Shown piece after piece: positions 11,385-47,861 of a DNA stretch of 64,000 nucleotides (its first letter is position 1; each line of letters starts with the position of its first letter). The position numbers and the translations under genes are program-made. Source of the stretch: a virus (taxonomy: Duplodnaviria; Caudoviricetes); IMG/VR virus record IMGVR_UViG_3300001528_000580, positions 288,001 to 352,000 of that record; one strand, 5' to 3'. Below the pieces are notes generated by a model. That model was not told the DNA's origin. It made no database searches and was given only the letters and a program-made list of their open reading frames with translations.

Positions 11385-12839
11385 CTAAATAATTATTTTA
11401 GAATTTTCTCTTACTTCATCAAAGGTATACTCTTTAATCATTTCACCATTTTCAAATACTAATTCTAAATAGTTTTTACGATCACCGAGTTCTTCTTCCC
11501 TAATAGTTACAAACTTATCTCCTTCTTTAATAAGAGCAAGTCTTCCTCTTTTACTCATTTTAGTGATGTCCTTTGGTTTTTTATAAACATCATGCCAAAT
11601 ATCGTCAAACATTTGAGCAGAACATTTAAAAGCAAAACGTTGTACATCTCTATTAACTTTTTGATGAAGACCACCACCCATGCCAAAAATAATATTTTCA
11701 ACACTCCAACCGTGATTTGTCATTGCAAACAATACATCACGGATTCCATAATAATCGATTCCATCTCCCCAAAGGACTCTTACTTTATCATTCAAAACTT
11801 TGAATCCTTTTTCATTAGTTGTATAACCGAAATATTCTCCCAAAAGTTCCAAACATCTCAATGTTACACATACTGGATCTCCACTATCCGGTCTGAAAAC
11901 AGTCCTGCCATTCCTATTTAATACTCTGTCTTTAAAACGTGTCCCCAATACTGTAATATAATTTTCATAATTATAACTATCAATAACAGTAGAAAGCACA
12001 CCAGTATCAAATTCATTATATAAATGTTCAACAACGTCAAATTCACCAGCTTCTCCACGAGCAGTCATGATCGAATGTTCTGTTGCGGCAACAGAAAAAC
12101 CAGGCATTTCTTTTGCAACATTTACTTCATTGAATTCTTCTTGATTTAACAACTGGCAATCTGCACCATAATATTTCATAATTAATGTAAGTGCTGGAAC
12201 AGTGTCAGTACCCATCCAACCAGCCGCCAAGTGCGCAGAACCAGCAAAAGCAGCCGATTCAAGCGTGGTAGAACTTCTTTCACCAAAATCATGCAACATC
12301 CATTTAAGTGCATCAAGATTATCAGTCGTTCTCAACAAATAATCTTTAATCATAATTTTGCATTCTCTTGAAAGAGTTGCAACAGTCATGGAATACCAAA
12401 CATGCAACAATTCTGTTTCGACAAAATTAGTCAACCATTCGCAATTCTCTTTGTCTGTGTTTTCTACGGTCATCATGACGTTATTAACATCAACGGCTGT
12501 ACCCTCTGGAACTGCCATGATACGAAGCGGTAAACGCCCATTATGACGATTTAAAATATATTCCCAACCTTCTCTGTTGAAAACACCTTTACCCAAATGT
12601 GCGTTGATGATCATTTCTGCTTCATCAATTTTTTCTTGAGTTACCACTTGTCCAATAAAATATCTTTTTAAGATATATTGCAATCCATAAAATACAGTTT
12701 TATTAAACTTAGCACCATTTCTTGCTTCTAAATAAGAATATACTTTTTGAGTATCTTTGAGATACATTTTCCAATGTCCCATTTTGTAGCTATCACTCAT
12801 GAGGCAAATATTTTCAAAAAAATCAAATTTAATTTTCAT
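11385..12839 (-). CDS. nadV: nicotinamide phosphoribosyltransferase
   Basis: SDSYKMGH, LHDFG, ATEHS, RPDSGDP, WGDGI, FGMGGGL. Confidence 0.95.
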   Translation of the reverse strand: MKIKFDFFENICLMSDSYKMGHWKMYLKDTQKVYSYLEARNGAKFNKTVFYGLQYILKRYFIGQVVTQEKIDEAEMIINAHLGKGVFNREGWEYILNRHNGRLPLRIMAVPEGTAVDVNNVMMTVENTDKENCEWLTNFVETELLHVWYSMTVATLSRECKIMIKDYLLRTTDNLDALKWMLHDFGERSSTTLESAAFAGSAHLAAGWMGTDTVPALTLIMKYYGADCQLLNQEEFNEVNVAKEMPGFSVAATEHSIMTARGEAGEFDVVEHLYNEFDTGVLSTVIDSYNYENYITVLGTRFKDRVLNRNGRTVFRPDSGDPVCVTLRCLELLGEYFGYTTNEKGFKVLNDKVRVLWGDGIDYYGIRDVLFAMTNHGWSVENIIFGMGGGLHQKVNRDVQRFAFKCSAQMFDDIWHDVYKKPKDITKMSKRGRLALIKEGDKFVTIREEELGDRKNYLELVFENGEMIKEYTFDEVRENSKIII

Positions 12840-12858
12840 TTTATTATTCCTTTATTTA

Positions 12859-13797
12859 TTATTTCTGTTTCTTACTCAAAAAATCAACTAACATCTTTCC
12901 TAACACAATATGTTCATCAACTAACAATTCATTGTATTTTTCAATAAATTCTCCAATTGAAACAACTGATAAAGAATCAATGTCATCATGAGCTTCTGGT
13001 TTGCCATCCAATTTTCTTGCAAGATAAAAATTTGTAATAATTTTATCTTCTTCTGAACGGTATCTCCAATCATTGATTTTAACGCTTCCAATATAATCTT
13101 GTGTTGGGTCAATATCAACTGTCATAGATGTTTCTTCAAGTGCTTCTCTTTTTGCAGCATCTTCAAAAGAATTATCTTTTTTAGGATCAGTAAAACCACC
13201 AACAAAACGAAGTTTATTTTGATTTCTTTTTTGTGCAAGATAAAGATTATTATTTTCGTCTATAATTGCAACGTCAACAGTAGCATATGCTGTTGGATAT
13301 CTATTATTTGTTGCTAAGATAACTCCACGACGAAAATTTGCATCTTTTGCAATATTATTAGAAGCAATTCTTCTTCTAATAACTGTACCAGAAATAATGT
13401 TTTTCGGAACGAATTCTTCTGCCTTATATCTACCACAATAAGACTTGACAAAAGAATCTCTACTACCATACAAAACAATATTTTGATTTTGAGGAATTTG
13501 CTTGGCGATGAGAGAATCCAACATTTTTGACCAAATTTCATCATTACCTACATCTTCAATGTAGTATACAGAAACATTTGGATATTTCTCTTGGATCATT
13601 TGTTTTCTCATCTCAAAATCGAGTGGATTATTTTTGGTATACTTAATTTCACTAAGTCCCAAAAATACTACTACGTTGTTATGTAAACTCATTACATAGT
13701 CAAAGATATCACAATGACCAGCATGTAATTCATCTACTTGGAACCTGCCAACGATAACTCCAGTTCCATTGTCTATTTTTTCTTCTTCATCCAACAT
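12859..13797 (-). CDS. nadM: bifunctional NMN adenylyltransferase / Nudix hydrolase (NadM-Nudix, NatV-like)
   Basis: GRFQ..HAGH, SGT..R, Nudix box GGF...AKREALEET. Confidence 0.92.
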   Translation of the reverse strand: MLDEEEKIDNGTGVIVGRFQVDELHAGHCDIFDYVMSLHNNVVVFLGLSEIKYTKNNPLDFEMRKQMIQEKYPNVSVYYIEDVGNDEIWSKMLDSLIAKQIPQNQNIVLYGSRDSFVKSYCGRYKAEEFVPKNIISGTVIRRRIASNNIAKDANFRRGVILATNNRYPTAYATVDVAIIDENNNLYLAQKRNQNKLRFVGGFTDPKKDNSFEDAAKREALEETSMTVDIDPTQDYIGSVKINDWRYRSEEDKIITNFYLARKLDGKPEAHDDIDSLSVVSIGEFIEKYNELLVDEHIVLGKMLVDFLSKKQK

Positions 13798-16016: not shown

Positions 16017-16394
16017 TTAAAAGACTATTTCACGAACATTTAATCCTAATTCATTATTCAACCAATTTGCCACTAAATGTCTATGGCAAAATTTATTTGG
16101 TGCTTCCCAACATAACAACACAGCATCATCACCTAGTTTTTCAAATACATCTTTTGCATTTAATTTTGACAAAACTTCTTTATAATATTGCTCTGTATAA
16201 TATTCTTCATCTCCATCTTCTTTATATTTTTTAAAAAACCAATATTTTGGAGCTAAGGTTTTGTATTCATGTTTTTTAATATCATCACCATAAAATTTAA
16301 CAAAATCATCCATTGATTTACCAGCAATACTAATTAAATTAGTATAACCCATTTGTAATAATTGTTTTCTTCTAGCAAAATATGATGTATACAT
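16017..16394 (-). CDS. DUF488 family protein
   Basis: YTSYF, LAP, LLCWE..FCHRHLVA; start refined after AGGAG. Confidence 0.8.
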   Translation of the reverse strand: MYTSYFARRKQLLQMGYTNLISIAGKSMDDFVKFYGDDIKKHEYKTLAPKYWFFKKYKEDGDEEYYTEQYYKEVLSKLNAKDVFEKLGDDAVLLCWEAPNKFCHRHLVANWLNNELGLNVREIVF

Positions 16395-16470
16395 ATTTAC
16401 ATAATCTCCTTTATAATAAAAAAAATAACATATGAAATAATAAATTCCATATGTTATCAATAAAAGTAAA

Positions 16471-16767
16471 TTATTTAGAATTTATTGTATAAGTTCCGTC
16501 TTGTTCTGATACAGGAATCCTAATATACATTCTATAAGGATCAAGCAATGGTGCATTTACATATGATTTACCAGTAGCATACAATCCTTTACTATCTTTT
16601 GCAATAACTACCTTATCAGAAAAATAATCATTACAAATATCCTTCATATTAACATCTTCTAAAACGGATATTACCATATTTTCTTTTGTACCATAATGAC
16701 CATCCCATTCATTATCATACTTAATTTTATCATTATTAGAACTACTGTTATTTTTCGGTTTACCCAT
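16471..16767 (-). CDS. hypothetical protein
   Basis: AGGAG RBS. Confidence 0.6.
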   Translation of the reverse strand: MGKPKNNSSSNNDKIKYDNEWDGHYGTKENMVISVLEDVNMKDICNDYFSDKVVIAKDSKGLYATGKSYVNAPLLDPYRMYIRIPVSEQDGTYTINSK

Positions 16768-16788: not shown

Positions 16789-17652
16789 TTACAATGCAAT
16801 TAACTGAACATTTGGAAATGTTCTTTCAAAAAAATGATAATATTTCCATTTATTATCACTATAACTAGGTCTTTCACCAAAGTTAACATTTATCAATGCA
16901 ATACCATTAGCAAGTAATACATCTTCAAATGCATTTGGATTTTTTATCATACAACGATAATATAAATCTAAACATATTCCAATCAAATATGGAATAGCGG
17001 AATTTCTGACAGATTCGTAAGTAATATTGTTTTTCTTTAATGTGAAACATCTTTTAGCAATATTAAAATTAAATCCATGAAAATTTAAAATACCAATGGC
17101 TTCATTAACAATTCTCTTAATGTTTTCACAATGAAAATTTACATATTTAAATCTATCATTATTGGTATTTTCACTTGCAATCATTTTTATACGTTCTTTA
17201 AATAATTTTGACATTTCTCCTTGAACAGCATAAAAACCAACATTATCAGAATTATTTTTATATAAATACTCTAAACCAATATTTATTGTGCTATCATCGT
17301 TATAATCATCATGATAAACATCTATGATTCTCCCATTATAATATACAATAATTGGAGATTCATTAATTGCTATATCTTTTTCTTTATTATAATCAATATG
17401 ACCAAAACAATAATTTCTTGTCCATTCAACTTCCTTGTTATCAAAATCGCATACAACTTTGACACTTGCAGAATTACCTGTTCTGTTATTAATGTCAAAA
17501 TCAAATTCTCTTGATATTTTTGAAGATATTAATCCAAGTCCAAATGCAATACAATCAAATTCAAAACTGTCCTCATTTGGTAAAACGTTTATCCCCTTAG
17601 ATAATTCAATCCACCTTGAAAATTCTTCAATATATATTTTTTTTAAAAACAT
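16789..17652 (-). CDS. PtuA/AAA_21-like ABC-ATPase scaffold lacking catalytic motifs (pseudo-ATPase)
   Basis: MFLKKIYIEEF, PIIVYYNGR, DLYYRCMIKNP, GIALI, TFPNVQLI resemble PtuA-type ATPases; no Walker A, LSxG, DE or THS. Confidence 0.65.
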   Translation of the reverse strand: MFLKKIYIEEFSRWIELSKGINVLPNEDSFEFDCIAFGLGLISSKISREFDFDINNRTGNSASVKVVCDFDNKEVEWTRNYCFGHIDYNKEKDIAINESPIIVYYNGRIIDVYHDDYNDDSTINIGLEYLYKNNSDNVGFYAVQGEMSKLFKERIKMIASENTNNDRFKYVNFHCENIKRIVNEAIGILNFHGFNFNIAKRCFTLKKNNITYESVRNSAIPYLIGICLDLYYRCMIKNPNAFEDVLLANGIALINVNFGERPSYSDNKWKYYHFFERTFPNVQLIAL

Positions 17653-17719
17653 TTTTTCAATCCTTATTGTTATCAATGAAGTAATATAGCATAATAAAAT
17701 TAAAAAGCAAACTATTTTT

Positions 17720-20700
17720 TTAATTTTGTTCTATTATTTTCAACTCTCCTTTGTTATTGTTCTTATTGAAAAAGTAAACAGTTCTATCTTGATCGCTTAC
17801 TGATATTGGAATTTGTAATATGTTTCCTTCTTTAAAATAATTTTTATATGTAAATTTTGCATCATCTTCACCAACAAGCATTTTTGCATTATTCAACCCA
17901 TCTGTTAATAAAATCCAACATTTTTTATCACCATTTTTAGTAGTAAAATTAACTATTTTATCAACTTTACTAATAACAAGTCTAAATCTTGCATTTCCTT
18001 CTTCAACTTCATCCATTGTTTTCAATAACATATTATTATTTTTCTTCGCACTAATATTAAATTCTTCTATATACTTTTCAAAACGTTCAGAAACAGTTTT
18101 TTCAAATACATAATTTAACATTGCTTCTTCTCTTTGTTTTTGTTCTTCTTTTGTCAAAACAGGTGTTGAACTAGCAAAATCATCCATCATATCAAAAAAA
18201 TCTAATTGATTAAAATCTTTTTTGTTCTTTATTTGATTCCATCTCTCTAATATAATAGTTACATCTCCAAAAGAATTGAATGACCCTGAACAAATTAAAT
18301 GTTCTAACTTCTTTTCATTAAATTTATTTCCAACTCTTTCAAAAAAATCATCAAAATTTTTATATGGTCTGTTTTCAATAATATTATTTATATCTATTTG
18401 ATTTAACAACATCATATCTCTTAATGGAAATCTTAACCCTTCATAAAAACCATTACTATCAATTATCCATTTATTTTCTGAAATATTAATGTCTGGTTGA
18501 AAAACCCTTATTCCATTTTTTCTAGCATAATTAATCAAAAATTTAATTGCTGAAATATTTTCTATTTCTTCTGTTCTATTATAATGATTTAATAAACAGC
18601 AAGTAAATTCTTTTCTATAATGTGCCTTAAAAAATAAATCAAGAGCACTATACATACTATATGCTACACTGTGAGATTCATTAAAGCCATATCCTGAAAA
18701 CGCAAGTAATTCATTAAATATAGCTTCTGGATATTCTTTTGATATTTCTCCTGATTCTACTTTTGATTGACAACCATCAACAAATAATTTTTTCCAATAA
18801 GGTATAAGATCACCTTTCATTTTTTGTTTATATAATAGTTTCATAAATTTATATGATTTTACATTATCAAATCCTGCTAAGTGATATGCCACATGATATG
18901 CTGCTTCCTGAAATATCGGTAATCCATAGGTACTTCCCAAATATTTTTCTAAACATTTAGGAATAGTATAATCTTCTTCACCATTTCTTCTATCACCAAA
19001 TTTTTTAGGAAATTTATTTTTCAAAGAAGCAGGACGCATTAAAGAGTTAACAGCACTTATATCGGAAAAAGAATGTATTCCATTCATATCTCTAATAACT
19101 CCTTTTGCAACATTACTATCTAACTGCCAAACTCCTATCAAATCACCACGATTAGCAACATCAAATGCTTTTTTATCATTTAAATATCCATCTATCAAAT
19201 AATCATCTCTTGTTCTATCATATCCATTACGTTCATTAACCATCTTGATAATTTCTTCAATAAAAGTCATTGCTTTCACTTCGAGAAAATCCATCTTGAC
19301 AAACCCCATTTGACCAAGCTCTCTACTTTCAATTCCTTCAAGCCAGCAAGTAGAGATACCATCTTTTGACATTCTTACTGGTAACATATCAGTTAGATTT
19401 TTATTTGAAACTAACACACCAGATGCATGAACACCATAAGTAACAGTATTTCCACGTAACTCATTAAATGGCATTTGAAGTTTAGGATATTTTTCCATCA
19501 ATATTTTCAAAGCAGAACATTTTTTCATTAACTCTTCTACTGGCAAATTTCTAATGTCATTATTATCTAAATCTGCCATTGATTTAGTTACAAATAAAAT
19601 TTCATCTTTATCAATATCATATACTCTTCCTAAATCTTGAAGCAAATTAGCACCAGAAAAGTTAGTGTTGGTTCCAATTAAACAAACACTACCTTCTCCA
19701 TATTTATTTCTTAAATAATTAATAACACTAGACTTTGATGATGAGTCAAGGTCAACATCAGGAAGATCACCACCAGAAACTTTACCACCCTGATTAATAA
19801 TTTCATCTAATCTTGAAGCATCAAGAAATCTTTCAAAAAGTAGATTATATTTAACAGGATCAACATCAAAAATATGCAAAGCATAAAGAACTAAAGAGCC
19901 AGCCCCCGACCCTCTTCCAGTCCCGGTTGCTATTTTATTTTTTCTACAAAATGAACAAATATCTTCCAAAAATAAGAAATAATCAGCAAATCCAGCTCTT
20001 ATTACGTTATCTAATTCATATTTCAATCTTTGAACATATATTGGATTATCAAAATGACCTCTATCCTTCAATCCATTCCATGCCTTTTCTTCAAGAACTT
20101 TATTTGCATTATCATATGTAGGCATTTTAATACTTGTATCAAGTTCAAAATTTTCAATAGATTCACAAAAATTATTTAGATTTTGTAAACATTGATTAAA
20201 TACATCTTCTGTAAATATATCATTTTTAAACTTTCTATTAAACAATTCATATATTTGTTCGGTACTTTTATAACTCATATCAGGACACAAGTTTATTTCT
20301 GGTCTTTTGTCACCATGCTTATAAATACTTAGCAATGCTTTAAATGAATCTTCATCTTCTTTATTTATATAATGACTATTAATTCCAATGACCATTGGAA
20401 TATTATGTTTTTTACAAAATTCTATTACTTTATTATTTATTTCAATATAATCATCATCCTCTGCAATTACCAACTCTAAGTATACATCATTGAATAATTT
20501 CTTATAACCTTTATATTTAGCAATTGCAAATTTTTCTCTGCCATTATCTATATCGTTAATAATTTCTCCATTAACACTTGGAACAATACAAGAAATACCT
20601 TCGTTATATTTAGATAATTCAAAATTTGTAGTTCTTGGATATTCATAAATTCCATTAAGTTGTGCATCATTATGAATTTTAATAATATTGTAATAACCTG

Positions 20701-21073
20701 TTATATTTTTGGCATATAACAATAAGTGCCAATTAACTCCAACTGCCACTTTTTCATCAAGTGTCATCTCATCAAGTGTCATCTCTTTCTGTTTATTTGC
20801 GCCATAAAACAATATTTTCTTTATACTTTTTGAATTTTTTTCATATTCTATTCTATAATTTGACACCATCATTTGAACACCAAGAATAGGAGTAATATCA
20901 TTTTTTTTACAAGTAAAATATTGATTCACCCATCCAGATAATTCATTATAATTAGTAATACCAACATATTTTTGTTTAAATTCTTTTGCTTTTTCTATAA
21001 CATCATTTATACTACCTAAACCAGATCTTAAGCTATAATTATCATGATGATGTATATTTTGAAATGTTAACAT
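17720..21073 (-). CDS. dnaE: DNA polymerase III alpha subunit
   Basis: PHP domain HHHDNYSL, GRGSGAGSL, LLFERFL, PDVDLD, HASGV, KMDFL, YGFNESH. Confidence 0.97.
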   Translation of the reverse strand: MLTFQNIHHHDNYSLRSGLGSINDVIEKAKEFKQKYVGITNYNELSGWVNQYFTCKKNDITPILGVQMMVSNYRIEYEKNSKSIKKILFYGANKQKEMTLDEMTLDEKVAVGVNWHLLLYAKNITGYYNIIKIHNDAQLNGIYEYPRTTNFELSKYNEGISCIVPSVNGEIINDIDNGREKFAIAKYKGYKKLFNDVYLELVIAEDDDYIEINNKVIEFCKKHNIPMVIGINSHYINKEDEDSFKALLSIYKHGDKRPEINLCPDMSYKSTEQIYELFNRKFKNDIFTEDVFNQCLQNLNNFCESIENFELDTSIKMPTYDNANKVLEEKAWNGLKDRGHFDNPIYVQRLKYELDNVIRAGFADYFLFLEDICSFCRKNKIATGTGRGSGAGSLVLYALHIFDVDPVKYNLLFERFLDASRLDEIINQGGKVSGGDLPDVDLDSSSKSSVINYLRNKYGEGSVCLIGTNTNFSGANLLQDLGRVYDIDKDEILFVTKSMADLDNNDIRNLPVEELMKKCSALKILMEKYPKLQMPFNELRGNTVTYGVHASGVLVSNKNLTDMLPVRMSKDGISTCWLEGIESRELGQMGFVKMDFLEVKAMTFIEEIIKMVNERNGYDRTRDDYLIDGYLNDKKAFDVANRGDLIGVWQLDSNVAKGVIRDMNGIHSFSDISAVNSLMRPASLKNKFPKKFGDRRNGEEDYTIPKCLEKYLGSTYGLPIFQEAAYHVAYHLAGFDNVKSYKFMKLLYKQKMKGDLIPYWKKLFVDGCQSKVESGEISKEYPEAIFNELLAFSGYGFNESHSVAYSMYSALDLFFKAHYRKEFTCCLLNHYNRTEEIENISAIKFLINYARKNGIRVFQPDINISENKWIIDSNGFYEGLRFPLRDMMLLNQIDINNIIENRPYKNFDDFFERVGNKFNEKKLEHLICSGSFNSFGDVTIILERWNQIKNKKDFNQLDFFDMMDDFASSTPVLTKEEQKQREEAMLNYVFEKTVSERFEKYIEEFNISAKKNNNMLLKTMDEVEEGNARFRLVISKVDKIVNFTTKNGDKKCWILLTDGLNNAKMLVGEDDAKFTYKNYFKEGNILQIPISVSDQDRTVYFFNKNNNKGELKIIEQN

Positions 21074-21113: not shown

Positions 21114-21485
21114 TTATCTATATATGTTAAAATCTCTTTCAAATAAGTTAATCATAATCTTGTTATTTACAATTAACTTATTATCAATCTGAGCAACTTT
21201 CATTGTTAAAAATAAATCTTTTATTGCAAAATGTAATTCTTCAAATTTAATACGAACATATTCTTGTGATACACTAATATTATACGATGTATTATCATAA
21301 TTACGATAAGTATCATTAAGATAATACATTTCATTTGAATCATTGCATACAAATTCTATGTCAAGAATATCATTTTTAAAATAATATTGGTTTATTATTT
21401 GTCTTAATAAATTACAGATATATTTTTCATTTATATCAAATGAAAAATATTTTTGATTTTCAGAACCGCATTTATACAATTTCAT
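21114..21485 (-). CDS. hypothetical protein
   Basis: ATGA overlap with upstream gene. Confidence 0.55.
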   Translation of the reverse strand: MKLYKCGSENQKYFSFDINEKYICNLLRQIINQYYFKNDILDIEFVCNDSNEMYYLNDTYRNYDNTSYNISVSQEYVRIKFEELHFAIKDLFLTMKVAQIDNKLIVNNKIMINLFERDFNIYR

Positions 21486-22399
21486 ATTATGAATTCCTCA
21501 TTAAATCCAAATCTTTTTAAAGTTAAATTTAAATATTTTTCATTAATATCTATACCAATATAATTTCTATTATATTTCATAGCCACAATACCAGTTGTCC
21601 CAACACCATTAAATATATCAATTACAGTATCACCCTCTTTAGTACCTGATAAAATACACGGTTCTACTAATTTTGTTGGAAATGGAGCAACATGTTCACC
21701 TTTATATGGTTCATTAGCTATTTGCCAAACAGAACGTTTGTTTCTTGATTTAATGATTGTTTCTTTTTTAAATCCAAATAAATCTTCTTCACTCTCTATT
21801 GTTTCTATTGGTTCTTGAATTGCATTATGATCAAAATAATAATTTTGATTTTTTGCTAATAAAAATAAATATTCATGTGCTTTTGTACATCTAGATTTAA
21901 CTGATTCTGGCATAGGATTTAATTTTTCCTAAATAATATCTTGTCTTAAAATCCAATTATGATCTTGAAGCCCAAAAGCAATCCTCCACGGAATACCAAT
22001 TAAATTTTTTTCAGGAATTCCAAATCCTGTTTTATCAATTCTATATGAAGCGTTTTTTTGATGTTTATGATCTTTACCAAACCCATATTTTTCACCAGTA
22101 CAATTGCCAAGTGAACCAGTTGGTTTAGATACATAACTATCACCAACATTTAGCCAAAATGTTCCATCTTTTTTCAAAACACGTTTTAATTCTTCAAATA
22201 TCACTAACAATTTATCAATATATTCAAACGGAGTAGTTTCAATACCTAATTGACCATCAACTCCATAATCTCTTAATCCGTAATAAGGTGGTGATGTAAT
22301 ACAACATTGAACCGATTCATTATCTAATGTTTTTAATGTTTCAAGAACATCACCACAATACAAACAAATTTTATTATTTTGATAAAATTTCTTCATCAT
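21482..22399 (-). pseudogene. beta-class N4C/N6A DNA methyltransferase split by in-frame TAG at 21929-21931
   Basis: TSPPY in 5' part, DIFNGVGTT in 3' part; junction LRQDII*EKLNPMPES where family members have W. Confidence 0.85.
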
Positions 22400-42295: not shown

Positions 42296-43030
42296 TTAAA
42301 AAAGTTCTTGTTGAATAGATAAATTATCCAAAATATCTTTAGCAAGGCTAAAAAAATCTTTATTTATTTCACAACCAATAAAATTCCTATTATTATTTAA
42401 TGATGCAACACCAGTACTACCACTACCCATGAATGGATCAAAAATAGTATCGTTTTCCTTTGTATGCAATTTAATAAAATCACTTAATAATGCAACAGGT
42501 TTTTGTGTAGGATGAATTCTCTCTTTTTTAGATGGAGAAGAATATCTTTTTGTTTTTAATTTTAAACTATAATCTGCTTCATTATTAAATGTAGAACCAC
42601 TTCCATGAACATAAACAATAAATTCTAGATCTGAAACATATTTACCAAAACAAAATGGAATAGGATTCAATTTACTCCACACCAATAATGTTGTAGGAAT
42701 ATTTAAATTCTCAAAAAAACTCATAGTTTTTGATACTTGATTATTTGAACAAAATATCAAAAAATTTGGAATATCACATAGTTTTAACATATTGGAAAAA
42801 CATTTTTCATAATCAAAACCATCACATATAAAATCAATATGTTTATCTTTAACTAACTTCCTTGTTCCAAAATCATTATTTTTTGTTCCACCATGAATGT
42901 CCATTTCATAAGGTGGATCAGTTATAATACAATCTACTTTTACGCCTCGATAAATCATATCATCCATTATTTTAAAACAATCATCATTATATATTGTATA
43001 ATCTGTCATAATTACTTTATTTATCTCCAT
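42296..43030 (-). CDS. beta-class DNA amino-methyltransferase
   Basis: TDPPY, HPTQKP, DPFMGSGSTG; ends QQELF. Confidence 0.92.
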   Translation of the reverse strand: MEINKVIMTDYTIYNDDCFKIMDDMIYRGVKVDCIITDPPYEMDIHGGTKNNDFGTRKLVKDKHIDFICDGFDYEKCFSNMLKLCDIPNFLIFCSNNQVSKTMSFFENLNIPTTLLVWSKLNPIPFCFGKYVSDLEFIVYVHGSGSTFNNEADYSLKLKTKRYSSPSKKERIHPTQKPVALLSDFIKLHTKENDTIFDPFMGSGSTGVASLNNNRNFIGCEINKDFFSLAKDILDNLSIQQELF

Positions 43031-43341
43031 TTTCTAGAATGTTGTTCAAAACAATTCTTAGTTGATAAAACTCCTTTTAAATCTACTTTTTGAAATACAG
43101 TTTTTCCACAATCGTATTTATATTCAATAGTATAATCATCAATAATTATTGTTTCTATTTTTCCATTTTGACAATGACAACAATTTATCTCTATAAAGCT
43201 ATCAAACTTTTTGCTTTTCCATAATGTTATAAAAAATAATATTTTAACATAAAAAAACTTTATTTTTTCTTTAAAATTCAATTTTTTATAAGAACGACTT
43301 GCATTACTAATATCACATTTATTATTAATGATTACATTCAT
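43021..43341 (-). CDS. hypothetical protein
   Basis: AGGAG RBS; CxxC. Confidence 0.55.
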   Translation of the reverse strand: MNVIINNKCDISNASRSYKKLNFKEKIKFFYVKILFFITLWKSKKFDSFIEINCCHCQNGKIETIIIDDYTIEYKYDCGKTVFQKVDLKGVLSTKNCFEQHSRKWR

Positions 43342-43355
43342 ATATTCTCCTTATG

Positions 43356-43739
43356 TTATGATTCGGAAATGAATAACAAATCAATATTGTTATATTTTAA
43401 TTTCATATTTTTAATATCATTATATAATTCTTTCAATTTATTATAATCAAAATTTATTAAATTGACTTTATATTCATTATATATTTTACCATATAGTTGA
43501 TTCATCTTTGAATATTCAAAAAATTCACAATCAACATCACTATATTTATTTTGATTTTCATATATTATCATCAATACCACACCATATAAAAATTTGGTAA
43601 TATTATATTTATCTGAATCATTTAATTCGTGTTCTTCAACATACATATATGTTGTTTCATTTTCATCATATTCTGGTTGAGCTTTATAATCATCCCAAAT
43701 ATTAACTGTTATTTCATTATAATCATCAATTTTTTTCAT
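43356..43739 (-). CDS. hypothetical acidic protein
   Basis: AGGAG RBS. Confidence 0.6.
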   Translation of the reverse strand: MKKIDDYNEITVNIWDDYKAQPEYDENETTYMYVEEHELNDSDKYNITKFLYGVVLMIIYENQNKYSDVDCEFFEYSKMNQLYGKIYNEYKVNLINFDYNKLKELYNDIKNMKLKYNNIDLLFISES

Positions 43740-43752
43740 TATTAAACTCCTT

Positions 43753-44520
43753 TTAAAATAATTCTCCTTGAACGATATGATTATTTAATCTATTTGCAAT
43801 GATGTCACAATACTTTTCTTCTTTTTCTATTAAGACACATCTTCTATTAGTATTCATACATGCAATTCCAGTTGTACCGCTACCAGCACAAAAATCTAAT
43901 ATTAAATCTCCTTCGTTTGTATAAGTCTTGATTAAATATTCTAATAAAGCAACTGGTTTTTGGGTAGGATGCAATCCTATTTCTGTATTAAATTTTTGCC
44001 ATGATGAAGGGACTCTCAATTCAGTTAGTTTATTATCTTTTCTTTCATCAAATTTTCTATAATTTTCGGTTTCTGTAATAAAATCACACTTATATTTAGA
44101 CCTTAATTTACCATTTTCTGATCTTTCTTGCATTTGTTTATTATATGTCCATTTCCCATTACTAAAAAATAATATTTGCTCGTGTTCTTTCATTGGTTCT
44201 CTAACTGTATTAGCAAAATTACTACCTCTATTTTTTATCCATATCCATTCATGTTTAAACATTTTAGGATTACTCATAACTAATGCAGAAGAAAATGGTT
44301 GAGAACCATGTAATAAAATAGAAGCATTATCTTTCATAATTGGCAATAAAGCACTCCACATTTCATTAAATGGTATTATAGCATCCCATTTACAACTAGT
44401 AGTTCCATACGGTGGATCTGTTATACAAGCATCAAAAGTAACATTAAGTTTAGGCATAATTTCTAAACAATCACCATAATATAATTTAACTAATTTATTT
44501 TCAAAATATTTATTATTCAT
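43753..44520 (-). CDS. beta-class DNA amino-methyltransferase
   Basis: TDPPYG, HPTQKP, DFCAGSGTTG; ends QGELF. Confidence 0.92.
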   Translation of the reverse strand: MNNKYFENKLVKLYYGDCLEIMPKLNVTFDACITDPPYGTTSCKWDAIIPFNEMWSALLPIMKDNASILLHGSQPFSSALVMSNPKMFKHEWIWIKNRGSNFANTVREPMKEHEQILFFSNGKWTYNKQMQERSENGKLRSKYKCDFITETENYRKFDERKDNKLTELRVPSSWQKFNTEIGLHPTQKPVALLEYLIKTYTNEGDLILDFCAGSGTTGIACMNTNRRCVLIEKEEKYCDIIANRLNNHIVQGELF

Positions 44521-44521
44521 T

Positions 44522-45274
44522 TCAAATTATATAGCTTCCTAGTCTATTTTTTATGATTTCACAATATTTTTCTTCCTTTTCTATCAAAACACATTTTCTT
44601 GATGTATTAATACAAGCCATACCAGTACTACCGCTACCTGCAAACGAATCCAAAACCAGATCATTATTATTAGTTGATACATTTATTAAAAACTCTATTA
44701 ATTTAACACTTTTTTCATTGGGATGAATAGCATTAGATGCACGTTTTTCTGTTGCATATGAAACTTCTGTTTTAATAAAATTAGGATATTCATAAGTATA
44801 TTCATTTGGTTTTTTATTTCTTTTGTCATTAAACCATTCTTTAGATGTTTTAAAAAAATCAACATTATTTAACGGCTTTCCTCTTCCTTTTGAAAATACT
44901 AAAATTGGTTGAAATTGGAATCCAAAATTATTTTTTGCCCTTTTTGCTCCATTATTAAACGATCTTGTTGCAATAATGTTTTTATAAGTAAATCCATTTT
45001 CTATACCTGTAAATATCCAATTATGTAATGTCTTTACACCAACAAATAAAAATAAAAAACAATCATCTTTTAAAATATTATACCAACACATAAACCATTT
45101 AGGCATTTCTTCTAGTATATAATCATTTGTATCATTATAAAAATCATTTTTAAATCCTACTCCATATGGAGGATCAGTTATAATACAATCAAATTTTTTA
45201 TCAAAATTATACATTATACTTATACAATCATCGTTATATAATTCTATATTTTTATTACTAAAAACACAATTCAA
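44522..45274 (-). CDS. beta-class DNA amino-methyltransferase
   Basis: TDPPYG, HPNEK, DSFAGSGSTG; TTG start after AGGAG. Confidence 0.92.
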   Translation of the reverse strand: MNCVFSNKNIELYNDDCISIMYNFDKKFDCIITDPPYGVGFKNDFYNDTNDYILEEMPKWFMCWYNILKDDCFLFLFVGVKTLHNWIFTGIENGFTYKNIIATRSFNNGAKRAKNNFGFQFQPILVFSKGRGKPLNNVDFFKTSKEWFNDKRNKKPNEYTYEYPNFIKTEVSYATEKRASNAIHPNEKSVKLIEFLINVSTNNNDLVLDSFAGSGSTGMACINTSRKCVLIEKEEKYCEIIKNRLGSYII

Positions 45275-45339
45275 TTTATAAACTCCTTGTAATTATTTAT
45301 TTTAATAATATAGCATAAAAATACATAAAATCAACATAT

Positions 45340-46368
45340 TTATATTTTTTTTCTAAAGATAAAGATTGGTTCATATTTATATTTATCTTTATGACTTAAA
45401 CTTGACAAACTATATTTCATTATTTTCATTAAATCAAAATTGTTTTTTTGAGCAACATTTAAAAAATCATTTTCTAAGTTATTATAAGAACGTACATTAG
45501 CTATATTAATAGCTAAAATACCTTTAGAATTTAATCCATAATAACAATTTTTTAATGTTTTACTCAAAAATTGTTCTATCCATTCCTCCTTTGAAGAATA
45601 TTTTAAATAAGATTGTGTTAATTCATTGGAATATCTTTCTGTATCAAAATAAGGTGGACTTGTAAAACAAAAATCCAAAGAATTTTTTTCAGGTATAAAA
45701 TCTTCTGAGCCAACTTTATATAATTCTACTTTAGTATGATATAAAGGAAATAAATAATCATCTTGATTATATCTACAATCTTCTGATATTTTTTGTAAAC
45801 CATTGAATGTTTGAGTACATGGTTCTGTTCCAATATATTTTTTTACTTCTGATTTTATTGCACCAAGTAATCTACCACCATATCCACAAGACATATCCCA
45901 AACAACTTTATCTTTAGCAAATAATTTATATATCAATCCGGCGGCAGTTGGTCTAAAATTAGAAACACTCTGTACACCAGAAAATATTTTTAACATTTTT
46001 CTAATACCATTATCAGATATATTATCTCCAAACTTTATTCTTTTATCTATAACCTGTCTAAAGGTATTATCATCAAGAAAAGCCTCTAGTGGTGTTTTAA
46101 AGCCGTTACAGTTGACATTATAAGCATGTGGCATATAAGACCAACACAAAGCTAAACCATGCATGGCTTGCCCTATTTCATCGTTATTCAACAATGTATA
46201 ATCATCAAATGACATGAATTTATCAAATTCATTTTTTCTCCATTGTTCATCTGTTGGGAAATATGGAAATCCATGTTTTCTATAATATTTAAAAACATTT
46301 TCTTTATAATTTTCTAATTCTTCGTCAGAAAATTTATTCCATTGATTTTTATTTAAAAAAATATTCAT
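45340..46368 (-). CDS. DNA amino-methyltransferase (motif I before motif IV, SPPY)
   Basis: NFRP, DMSCGYGGRLLG, FTSPPYF. Confidence 0.88.
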   Translation of the reverse strand: MNIFLNKNQWNKFSDEELENYKENVFKYYRKHGFPYFPTDEQWRKNEFDKFMSFDDYTLLNNDEIGQAMHGLALCWSYMPHAYNVNCNGFKTPLEAFLDDNTFRQVIDKRIKFGDNISDNGIRKMLKIFSGVQSVSNFRPTAAGLIYKLFAKDKVVWDMSCGYGGRLLGAIKSEVKKYIGTEPCTQTFNGLQKISEDCRYNQDDYLFPLYHTKVELYKVGSEDFIPEKNSLDFCFTSPPYFDTERYSNELTQSYLKYSSKEEWIEQFLSKTLKNCYYGLNSKGILAINIANVRSYNNLENDFLNVAQKNNFDLMKIMKYSLSSLSHKDKYKYEPIFIFRKKI

Positions 46369-46372
46369 AAAA

Positions 46373-47095
46373 TTATTTATTTTTATTTAATCTATCAGTA
46401 ATAATATTGCAATATTTTTCTTCTTTTTCGATAAGAATACAATTTCTATTAGTATTCATACAAGCAACACCTGTCGTTCCACTACCTGCGCAACTGTCTA
46501 AAATTAAATCTCCTTCATTAGAACCTAACATAATTATTCTTTCTAATAATCTTACTGGTTTTTGAGTAGAATGATCAACTTTTTCTTTACTATTATGGGG
46601 TAATGCAGGTATATCTGTCCAAACATCAGAAAGTGAAACTCCATTCTTTAAAATTCCACTTTTATACTCTTTTCTATTAGAATTAATTTGAATTTTTATA
46701 TTATTAAATGTTGAATTATTTCCTTTAGAATAAAAACAAATAGGTTCATATCCACTACTAAGTGCCATCCCTCTTGTATTGTTGAATGCTCTTTTTCTAG
46801 CCCAAATAATAATTCTTTTTTCAATAAAATATTTGTCAAGAATACAAGCAATCTTTCTATTATATTGTCTACCTGTAAACAAAAAAATATTTTTATTTGG
46901 CTTTAAGATTCTTTCATATTCAATAACATTACTTTCAATCCATTTTAAATATTCAACTTCATTATCCCAAAAATTGTCCCATTTATCTTTCACAACATTA
47001 CAATATGGTAAATCAACAATTATACAATCAATACATTCATTATCTAATGATTTAAGAACATTGAGACAGTCATCATTATAAATTTCAAAATTCAT
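46373..47095 (-). CDS. beta-class DNA amino-methyltransferase
   Basis: VDLPY, HSTQKP, DSCAGSGTTG. Confidence 0.9.
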   Translation of the reverse strand: MNFEIYNDDCLNVLKSLDNECIDCIIVDLPYCNVVKDKWDNFWDNEVEYLKWIESNVIEYERILKPNKNIFLFTGRQYNRKIACILDKYFIEKRIIIWARKRAFNNTRGMALSSGYEPICFYSKGNNSTFNNIKIQINSNRKEYKSGILKNGVSLSDVWTDIPALPHNSKEKVDHSTQKPVRLLERIIMLGSNEGDLILDSCAGSGTTGVACMNTNRNCILIEKEEKYCNIITDRLNKNK

Positions 47096-47153
47096 TATTA
47101 TATTACTCCATTAATTTTAACTTATAATATAACATATATTTTGAAAAAATCAA

Positions 47154-47861
47154 CTAAATATTAATAAATCTGTTTTTTATTATTTCACAATAATTTTCAT
47201 CTTGTTCAATTAATATGCATTTTCTTCCTAACTTCATACAAGCAATCCCTGTTGTGCCACTTCCTGCAAATAAATCTAAAACAGTATCACCTTCATTTGT
47301 AAAAATATTAATAATTCTTTCTAATAATTGAACAGGTTTTTGGGTAGGGTGTTGAACTCTTTCAGGAGACCACGGAACAATCGGAGATATATCTTGCCAA
47401 ACATTTGTTAATTTTCTGAACTCACAACCATTTTTTCTACCAATAGTTCCACCTGTTTTTTTCTTTATATTAGATAGTATTGGATTAAAAATATAATTAT
47501 CACCTTTGGAAAACCATAAAATATCTTCTCTTGTAGAAACAAAATTCTTTTTTGCTCCTCTTCCTTTTATTCTATCCCATATAATCCAATTATTAAATTT
47601 ATATCCATTATTCTTAAAACATGAAATAGCATAGTTAACATTACTCCAACCTTGAAAAACTAATAAATTACCATTTTCTTTTAATGATTTATCAAAAATA
47701 GGATAGTATTGATTAATATCAAAATTACTATCCCATTTATTATTTTCAAAATTAATTCCATATGGTGGATCAGTTATAATACAATCTACTTCACTACCTA
47801 CATAATCAATACAATTTCCACAATACAATTTTACATTGTCATTTTCATAATATAATTTCAT
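47154..47861 (-). CDS. beta-class DNA amino-methyltransferase
   Basis: TDPPYG, HPTQKP, DLFAGSGTTG. Confidence 0.92.
   Translation of the reverse strand: MKLYYENDNVKLYCGNCIDYVGSEVDCIITDPPYGINFENNKWDSNFDINQYYPIFDKSLKENGNLLVFQGWSNVNYAISCFKNNGYKFNNWIIWDRIKGRGAKKNFVSTREDILWFSKGDNYIFNPILSNIKKKTGGTIGRKNGCEFRKLTNVWQDISPIVPWSPERVQHPTQKPVQLLERIINIFTNEGDTVLDLFAGSGTTGIACMKLGRKCILIEQDENYCEIIKNRFINI

Follow-up and report, generated by a model that had tools for sequence, protein, structure and literature searches.

Within the replication genes of a gut phage lies an intact reading frame whose product resembles PtuA, the ATPase of Septu defense systems, but is stripped of every catalytic motif, raising the question of why a phage would keep a dead piece of an antiphage enzyme. 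The preliminary description of this locus had proposed a dominant-negative decoy, which would either co-assemble with host PtuA oligomers or sequester PtuB. We therefore looked at the origin of the protein, at what it has lost and gained, and at how the proposal compares with its rivals.

The window analyzed (64,000 nucleotides) corresponds to positions 288001-352000 of G000, a complete virus record of 440,868 bp with direct terminal repeats, a GC content of ~25%, and 33 tRNAs detected by ARAGORN. Pig, cattle, and other gut sequencing runs carry near-identical DNA, pointing to a livestock-gut phage. We read the genome in code 11; TAG is its rarest stop codon (10 of 215 long ORFs), and a tRNA with a CTA anticodon is encoded at G000 256421-256495 (plus strand; L010:13422-13496), relatives being TAG recoded. 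The PtuA-like ORF sits in a minus-strand block that also encodes a helicase, exonucleases, a clamp-loader-like ATPase, NAMPT, a NadM-Nudix protein, and a DUF488 protein, further members (with labels taken partly from orthologues) being DnaE, methyltransferases, a deformylase, and a ferritin. Directly upstream is the gene for a DnaE-type DNA polymerase III alpha (17720-21073, minus strand), which here is a single intein-free ORF; in relatives, DnaE is split, with intein domains and inserted genes (L003:264-3610; L009:268-7942). Downstream, a 98-aa ORF with no family match and a DUF488-N3a gene (together 16017-16767, minus strand) are kept in close relatives only. The DUF488-N3a gene (16017-16394), which is two genes downstream of the PtuA-like ORF, also matches the PADLOC candidate PDC-M45C. 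Farther along the block, a NAMPT and NadM-Nudix pair (11385-13797, minus strand), the enzyme types of the NARP2 NAD-rebuilding counterdefense pathway, is likewise conserved in close relatives. A DNA methyltransferase is present as two ORFs of 143 and 156 aa (21482-22399, minus strand) where the relative L001 has one 304-aa gene, a possible frameshift, and ~7 clustered ORFs (42296-47861, minus strand) resemble DNA methyltransferases by their start sequences.

The PtuA-like ORF itself (P0001) runs on the minus strand from an ATG at 17652 to a TAA at 16789 and encodes 287 aa. It is intact, as first described, and its ribosome-binding site (AAGGA, 17665-17661) lies 8 nt before the ATG. A longer reading from a TTG at 17676 was rejected because the ribosome-binding site and all of the homologues fit the ATG. 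The site at 17683-17710 (minus strand), which had been called the gene's own consensus promoter, needed a different description: a generic sigma-70 scan gave no excess over shuffled sequences and did not list it, but its elements (a -35 TTGCTT, a TG, and a -10 TATATT) place it in a phage-wide TTG...TG.TATATT class with 68 intergenic copies in the genome versus 2 to 5 in shuffles. A similar site, as read by eye, precedes ~9 of 10 orthologues, and independent expression of the gene from its own promoter seems likely. Since the same class also precedes ligase and tRNA genes, however, the promoter gives no sign of a defense-related role. In 64 of the 68 copies the -10 element is TATATT rather than TATAAT, with an extended TG, and an unusual sigma factor, of the host or of the phage, may lie behind this.

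The likeness to PtuA goes beyond chance by profile, hhalign, Foldseek, and VIA comparisons. Pfam and NCBIfam returned no match for the ORF, and the single protein matched PADLOC PtuA1|PtuA with an E value of 2.3e-4. The only match of the family profile in the PDB was PtuA 8EE4 (E 0.34), and hhalign of the family against an alignment of intact PtuAs, the sequences of which had been fetched by motif from IMG/VR, gave 98.9%. With an AlphaFold2 model of the 287-aa protein (pLDDT 87, pTM 0.90), the top 50 Foldseek matches were all Septu or retron PtuA chains (best E 1.3e-10), and a wide VIA search returned PtuA at Z 22.4 (rmsd 3.1 A, 272 residues aligned, 13% identity), the next families being SMC (Z 12.7) and AriA (Z 12.4). 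Comparison of the model with Septu and retron PtuA over its whole length gave Z 22-23. The predicted structure thus does match ABC ATPases. A weak match to Csn2 covered residues 222-274 only, in 2 of 14 members; PtuA accounts for the whole chain. Read together, sequence and model confirm the 287-aa protein as a PtuA-derived ATPase head. The top feature match in the ESM Atlas (0.93; TM 0.77/0.70) was an unnamed cluster (319 aa, 144 members, 56% viral) that has no Pfam family in common with it, as expected of a motif-less head; as a lead only, this cluster may represent one more viral family of dead PtuA heads.

The catalytic losses were as first described. Walker A, the signature, Walker B, the D-loop histidines, and the His switch are gone in 37 of 37 homologues, a set that includes many close strain variants and one 144-aa fragment. 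Four residues including the GK have been deleted from Walker A, leaving a loop at residues 24-31 (17560-17583, minus strand) that is four residues shorter than in PtuA and has no GK[ST]; the ABC signature has been replaced, with its Ser and Gly positions unconserved; the Walker B Asp is mostly Asn and the Glu is gapped; and a Gly and an invariant Arg stand in place of the D-loop His pair. What had been missed is that the D-loop was not simply lost but rebuilt. A new invariant motif at residues 258-272 (16837-16881, minus strand), placed on the fold by alignment to PtuA, replaces the D-loop and the start of the next helix and has no likeness to the PtuA D-loop except for one Pro. Conservation in a 14-residue window here reaches 0.91, versus 0.60 for the best other window and a mean of 0.44. 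The chain then stops where the His switch would begin (stop codon at 16789-16791, minus strand), exactly 16 residues after the motif match in all 37 sequences. Two residues outside the old active site, His174 and Tyr231, are also invariant, the helical insert of the PtuA head is retained whole in the model, and the protein is neutral to acidic. The strongest conservation, as mapped from the alignment, appears to be on the former dimer face, not on the helical insert or lobe I.

The preliminary description had also overlooked the deletion of a C-terminal part of PtuA of ~100 residues. In the alignments, the match ends at residue 350 of 465 in Septu PtuA and at residue 425 in Ec78 PtuA, so that 22 residues follow the D-loop, compared with 118-163 in intact PtuAs (one exception, 68). 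The missing segment comprises the dimer-stabilizing linker (PMC12673091) and the PtuB-binding domain (PMC12819146).

Thirteen further relatives, at 23-66% identity, all came from metagenome assemblies, several of them TAG recoded; no member of the family turned up in IMG/VR, JGI metagenomes, GTDB genomes, or GenBank phages, nor did searches with DnaE or the clamp loader bring up a close member of the clade. DnaE is directly upstream of the orthologue in 8 of 9 other lineages examined, at loci that were collected via the PtuA-like gene itself. The exception, L016, refutes a rule that the gene always adjoins DnaE. The locus in the replication module is fixed across lineages at ~25% identity, including TAG-recoded ones, and the gene appears to be inherited in place beside DnaE. 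Across lineages, identity of the PtuA-like protein is 66, 55, 49, 30, and 27%, where that of DnaE is ~90, 85, 78, 74, and 55-65%. NG86 estimates of dN/dS, which are rough for these AT-rich genes (dS 0.8-1.8), were 0.24-0.37 overall versus 0.06 for DnaE, falling to 0.06-0.20 over residues 250-287 and rising to as much as 0.6 in the N-terminal half, and of the 6 strain SNPs listed, 5 are silent. The gene is thus not evolving neutrally; to judge from these substitution patterns, it is under long-term purifying selection and is not decaying.

Two further dead orphan PtuA heads in the same phage genome had likewise gone unnoticed. The second head (paralog 2, 302 aa; G000 250309-251217, plus strand; L010:7310-8218) follows the gene for the NAD-dependent ligase LigA, is PtuA-like by PADLOC (E 1.7e-17), and has five homologues at 50-77%; behind its Walker A helix, a basic stretch of Gly and Arg is conserved. 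It is homologous end to end to the 287-aa protein (hhalign 98.7%) and ends at nearly the same place; a tree with 45 PtuAs, weakened by long branches (long-branch attraction) and by the motif-selected PtuA set, groups it with the 287-aa family with support of 100/99. Its structure model was too poor for use (pLDDT 51), and a reading of L016:6758-7618 as paralog 2 was found to be wrong. The third head (315 aa; G000 271951-272898, plus strand; L013:7952-8899), in a run of amidoligase/amidotransferase-like genes, belongs to another Septu subfamily (E 2.7e-38) whose bacterial members related to it are 416-433 aa long, have all motifs intact, and are followed by a PtuB gene. In the third head Walker A survives, but the catalytic Glu, the D-loop His pair, the His switch, and the tail have gone. 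By its sequence it is an independent capture, with losses independent of those in the 287-aa family, and it could be a young relic. A 1065-aa protein, P0017, which matched PtuA in six short stretches (E 7e-4), was set aside as a likely chance match. The genome also holds an intact 188-aa minimal ABC ATPase with weak matches to several defense ATPases (G000 136593-137159, minus strand) and two neighboring ORFs that together make up a split SbcC-like ATPase (G000 411621-413452, minus strand).

As had been noted, no HNH partner adjoins the 287-aa ORF, and a PtuB profile run against the whole phage genome returned nothing below E 0.058; a separate ORF for the C-terminal domain was sought in the genome, and none was found. 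The phage does encode a tRNA-Tyr(GTA) (G000 254459-254552, plus strand; L010:11460-11553; Rfam tRNA, 38.7 bits), missed by ARAGORN and located 3.3 kb from paralog 2. It is atypical, with almost no D-arm (an 8-nt D region) and a 33-nt variable region, and tRNA-Tyr's variable loop is where Septu cuts (PMC13096335).

Our account of these observations begins with a phage ancestor that took the ATPase head of a Septu-type PtuA, which then lost its nucleotide motifs and PtuB-binding tail. In ABC dimers, the D-loop reaches into the ATP site of the partner. The phage head would pair head to head with a host PtuA protomer, with no need of ATP, its rebuilt loop facing the invariant Walker A/B surface of host PtuA, and the host protein would be denied both a dimer with nucleotide sandwiched in it and the two C-terminal domains needed to hold PtuB. 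Cleavage of tRNA-Tyr or DNA by Septu or retron I-A systems would be blunted, and further PtuA subfamilies would be dealt with by the two remaining orphan heads. We regard capping of host PtuA as the leading, though tentative, candidate function, and the probability of any anti-PtuAB role for the 287-aa protein as only a little short of even. Slightly more doubtful is the broader proposal that PtuA heads were captured again and again within a clade of gut jumbo phages and were turned into pseudo-ATPase inhibitors, each PtuA subfamily having its own, with the rebuilt D-loop plugging the host PtuA ATP site.

What favors capping is that the fold is specifically that of PtuA, a family known only from defense, that two more orphan heads occur in the genome with no PtuB found, and that the phage carries a tRNA-Tyr with a long variable region. 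PtuAB depends on head dimers bridged by nucleotide, on contacts made by the D-loop His, and on C-terminal domains that come in pairs, and the parts lost by the phage protein are those whose mutation (in the ATP site, the D-loop His, or the PtuB interface) abolishes PtuAB function (PMC12673091, PMC13376987). Furthermore, the motif stays invariant while the scaffold around it changes fast (66% identity, against 90% for DnaE), which fits an invariant partner surface such as the ATP site of PtuA would offer, and pressure from PtuAB explains two or more independent captures with matching losses more easily than unrelated reuse does. On the other hand, the reported head-dimer contacts (the Walker A Asn, the Walker B Glu, and the D-loop His pair) and the linker domain (PMC12673091) are all missing here, and ATP binding is reported to be essential for PtuA assembly (PMC13376987). 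Co-assembly with host PtuA, as originally proposed, is plausible and gains some indirect support from the three orphan heads in one genome, but the normal contacts are unusable, and any binding would have to go through the new motif. A fixed place in the replication module also suits a core gene better than a typical patchy anti-defense gene, the promoter class is shared with ligase and tRNA genes, and the third head could be a young relic.

A close rival to capping, and one that we hold equally tentatively, is that the head was reused for a phage housekeeping job. In its plainest form, this makes the protein a core phage component whose new motif would bind a small ligand or a conserved factor of the phage or host, in a replication or host-takeover role unrelated to PtuAB. 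Its stable locus among helicase, exonuclease, clamp-loader, and DnaE genes, divergence that broadly tracks DnaE, a motif unlike the PtuA D-loop apart from one Pro, and a fixed C terminus suggestive of a fitted interface all agree with this, but the gene does not adjoin DnaE in L016, is preceded by a promoter of its own, and evolves more quickly than the enzyme genes nearby, and the independent third capture is left unexplained; we consider this form unlikely. Less likely again is that duplication led to a dimeric pseudo-ATPase, the two sister paralogs pairing with each other (or each with itself). In one of them the D-loop is rebuilt, and in the other a region behind the Walker A helix is conserved, surfaces that face each other in ABC dimers; the two are homologous throughout and fall on one side of a branch in the tree, and both are present in this genome and in sample ERR7337727, probably on one 126,738-bp contig (to judge from equal size only). 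Their genes, however, lie on opposite strands with 54 kb between them, the deep-lineage loci (short stretches only) yielded no paralog 2, and the tree is open to long-branch attraction.

The dead head might instead keep the sensing surface of PtuA and cover the phage protein or nucleic acid that activates PtuAB, leaving PtuAB itself untouched. Retention of the whole head and helical insert, with His174 and Tyr231 invariant, would fit such a shield, for which PtuB binding and dimer contacts are dispensable, but the former dimer face, and not the insert or lobe I, is the most strongly conserved part, and the neutral to acidic character of the protein does not favor binding to nucleic acid, so that this too seems improbable, by a hair more than the paralog dimer. 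Sequestration of PtuB, the other half of the original proposal, has only PtuA ancestry in its favor and is very improbable: PtuB is held between two PtuA C-terminal domains (PMC12819146, PMC12673091), and the short tail here leaves no such domain, nor was a separate ORF for one found in the genome. Equally remote is a decaying relic of a captured Septu operon. Although all catalytic motifs are lost and the N-terminal half diverges fast, 37 of 37 homologues keep the motif, the exact end, and open frames (one being the fragment), the promoter is conserved, and the selection data, as they stand, already contradict decay. The probability that is left falls to roles other than these. Of the decoy claim, then, PtuA ancestry, catalytic death, and purifying selection are supported, PtuB sequestration is unlikely because the PtuB-binding C-terminal extension is missing, and a decoy role as such remains plausible.

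The conserved phage pseudo-ATPase family is real and, within the scope of our literature searches, previously undescribed. Septu triggering is still debated, and a PtuA-shaped inhibitor, if that is what the protein is, would allow the dimer and oligomer states of PtuA to be probed directly; phages would be turning an immune ATPase against itself, in an anti-defense class made from a defense protein. If the head was reused for a phage job instead, it would be a well-bounded case of a defense enzyme domesticated as a pseudoenzyme, with the 15-residue invariant motif marking its functional surface.

Phage mimics of defense components are a known kind, antitoxin mimics and crRNA mimics among them. 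Our literature searches found neither a PtuA-derived inhibitor or other PtuA-derived phage protein nor any protein of known mechanism that inhibits Septu or retron I-A. The known counters to PtuAB include phage tRNA-Tyr, which replaces the cleaved target (PMC11555353, PMC13096335) and shares with the 287-aa protein its proposed target system, this phage itself having an atypical tRNA-Tyr. The same proposed target is shared with Anhur and Svarog, two Vibrio-phage proteins (10.1101/2024.06.14.598830) with no reported direct interaction with Septu proteins (10.1101/2025.06.06.658234). Type I Septu PtuA (PDB 8EE4, 8EEA, 8SUX) has the same fold over residues 1-350 and the same order of scaffold motifs. 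In contrast to it, the phage protein is without Walker A, the signature, Walker B, the D-loop His, the His switch, and residues 351-465 (linker and PtuB-binding domain); it has a new invariant motif and sits in a phage replication module, with no ptuB and with a 98-aa ORF where Septu systems have the ptuB HNH gene directly downstream. Retron type I-A PtuA (Ec78/Eco7, Ec83; PDB 9KJX, 9E8Z, 9N69) also has the same fold (Ec78 residues 64-425, Z 18-23), but its N-terminal RT-binding extension and C-terminal domain, the RT, and the ncRNA have no counterpart in or near the phage protein, the upstream gene of which is DnaE. Because every defining catalytic and partner feature examined was missing, the 287-aa protein is best described as PtuA derived yet as neither a PtuA nor a Septu system.
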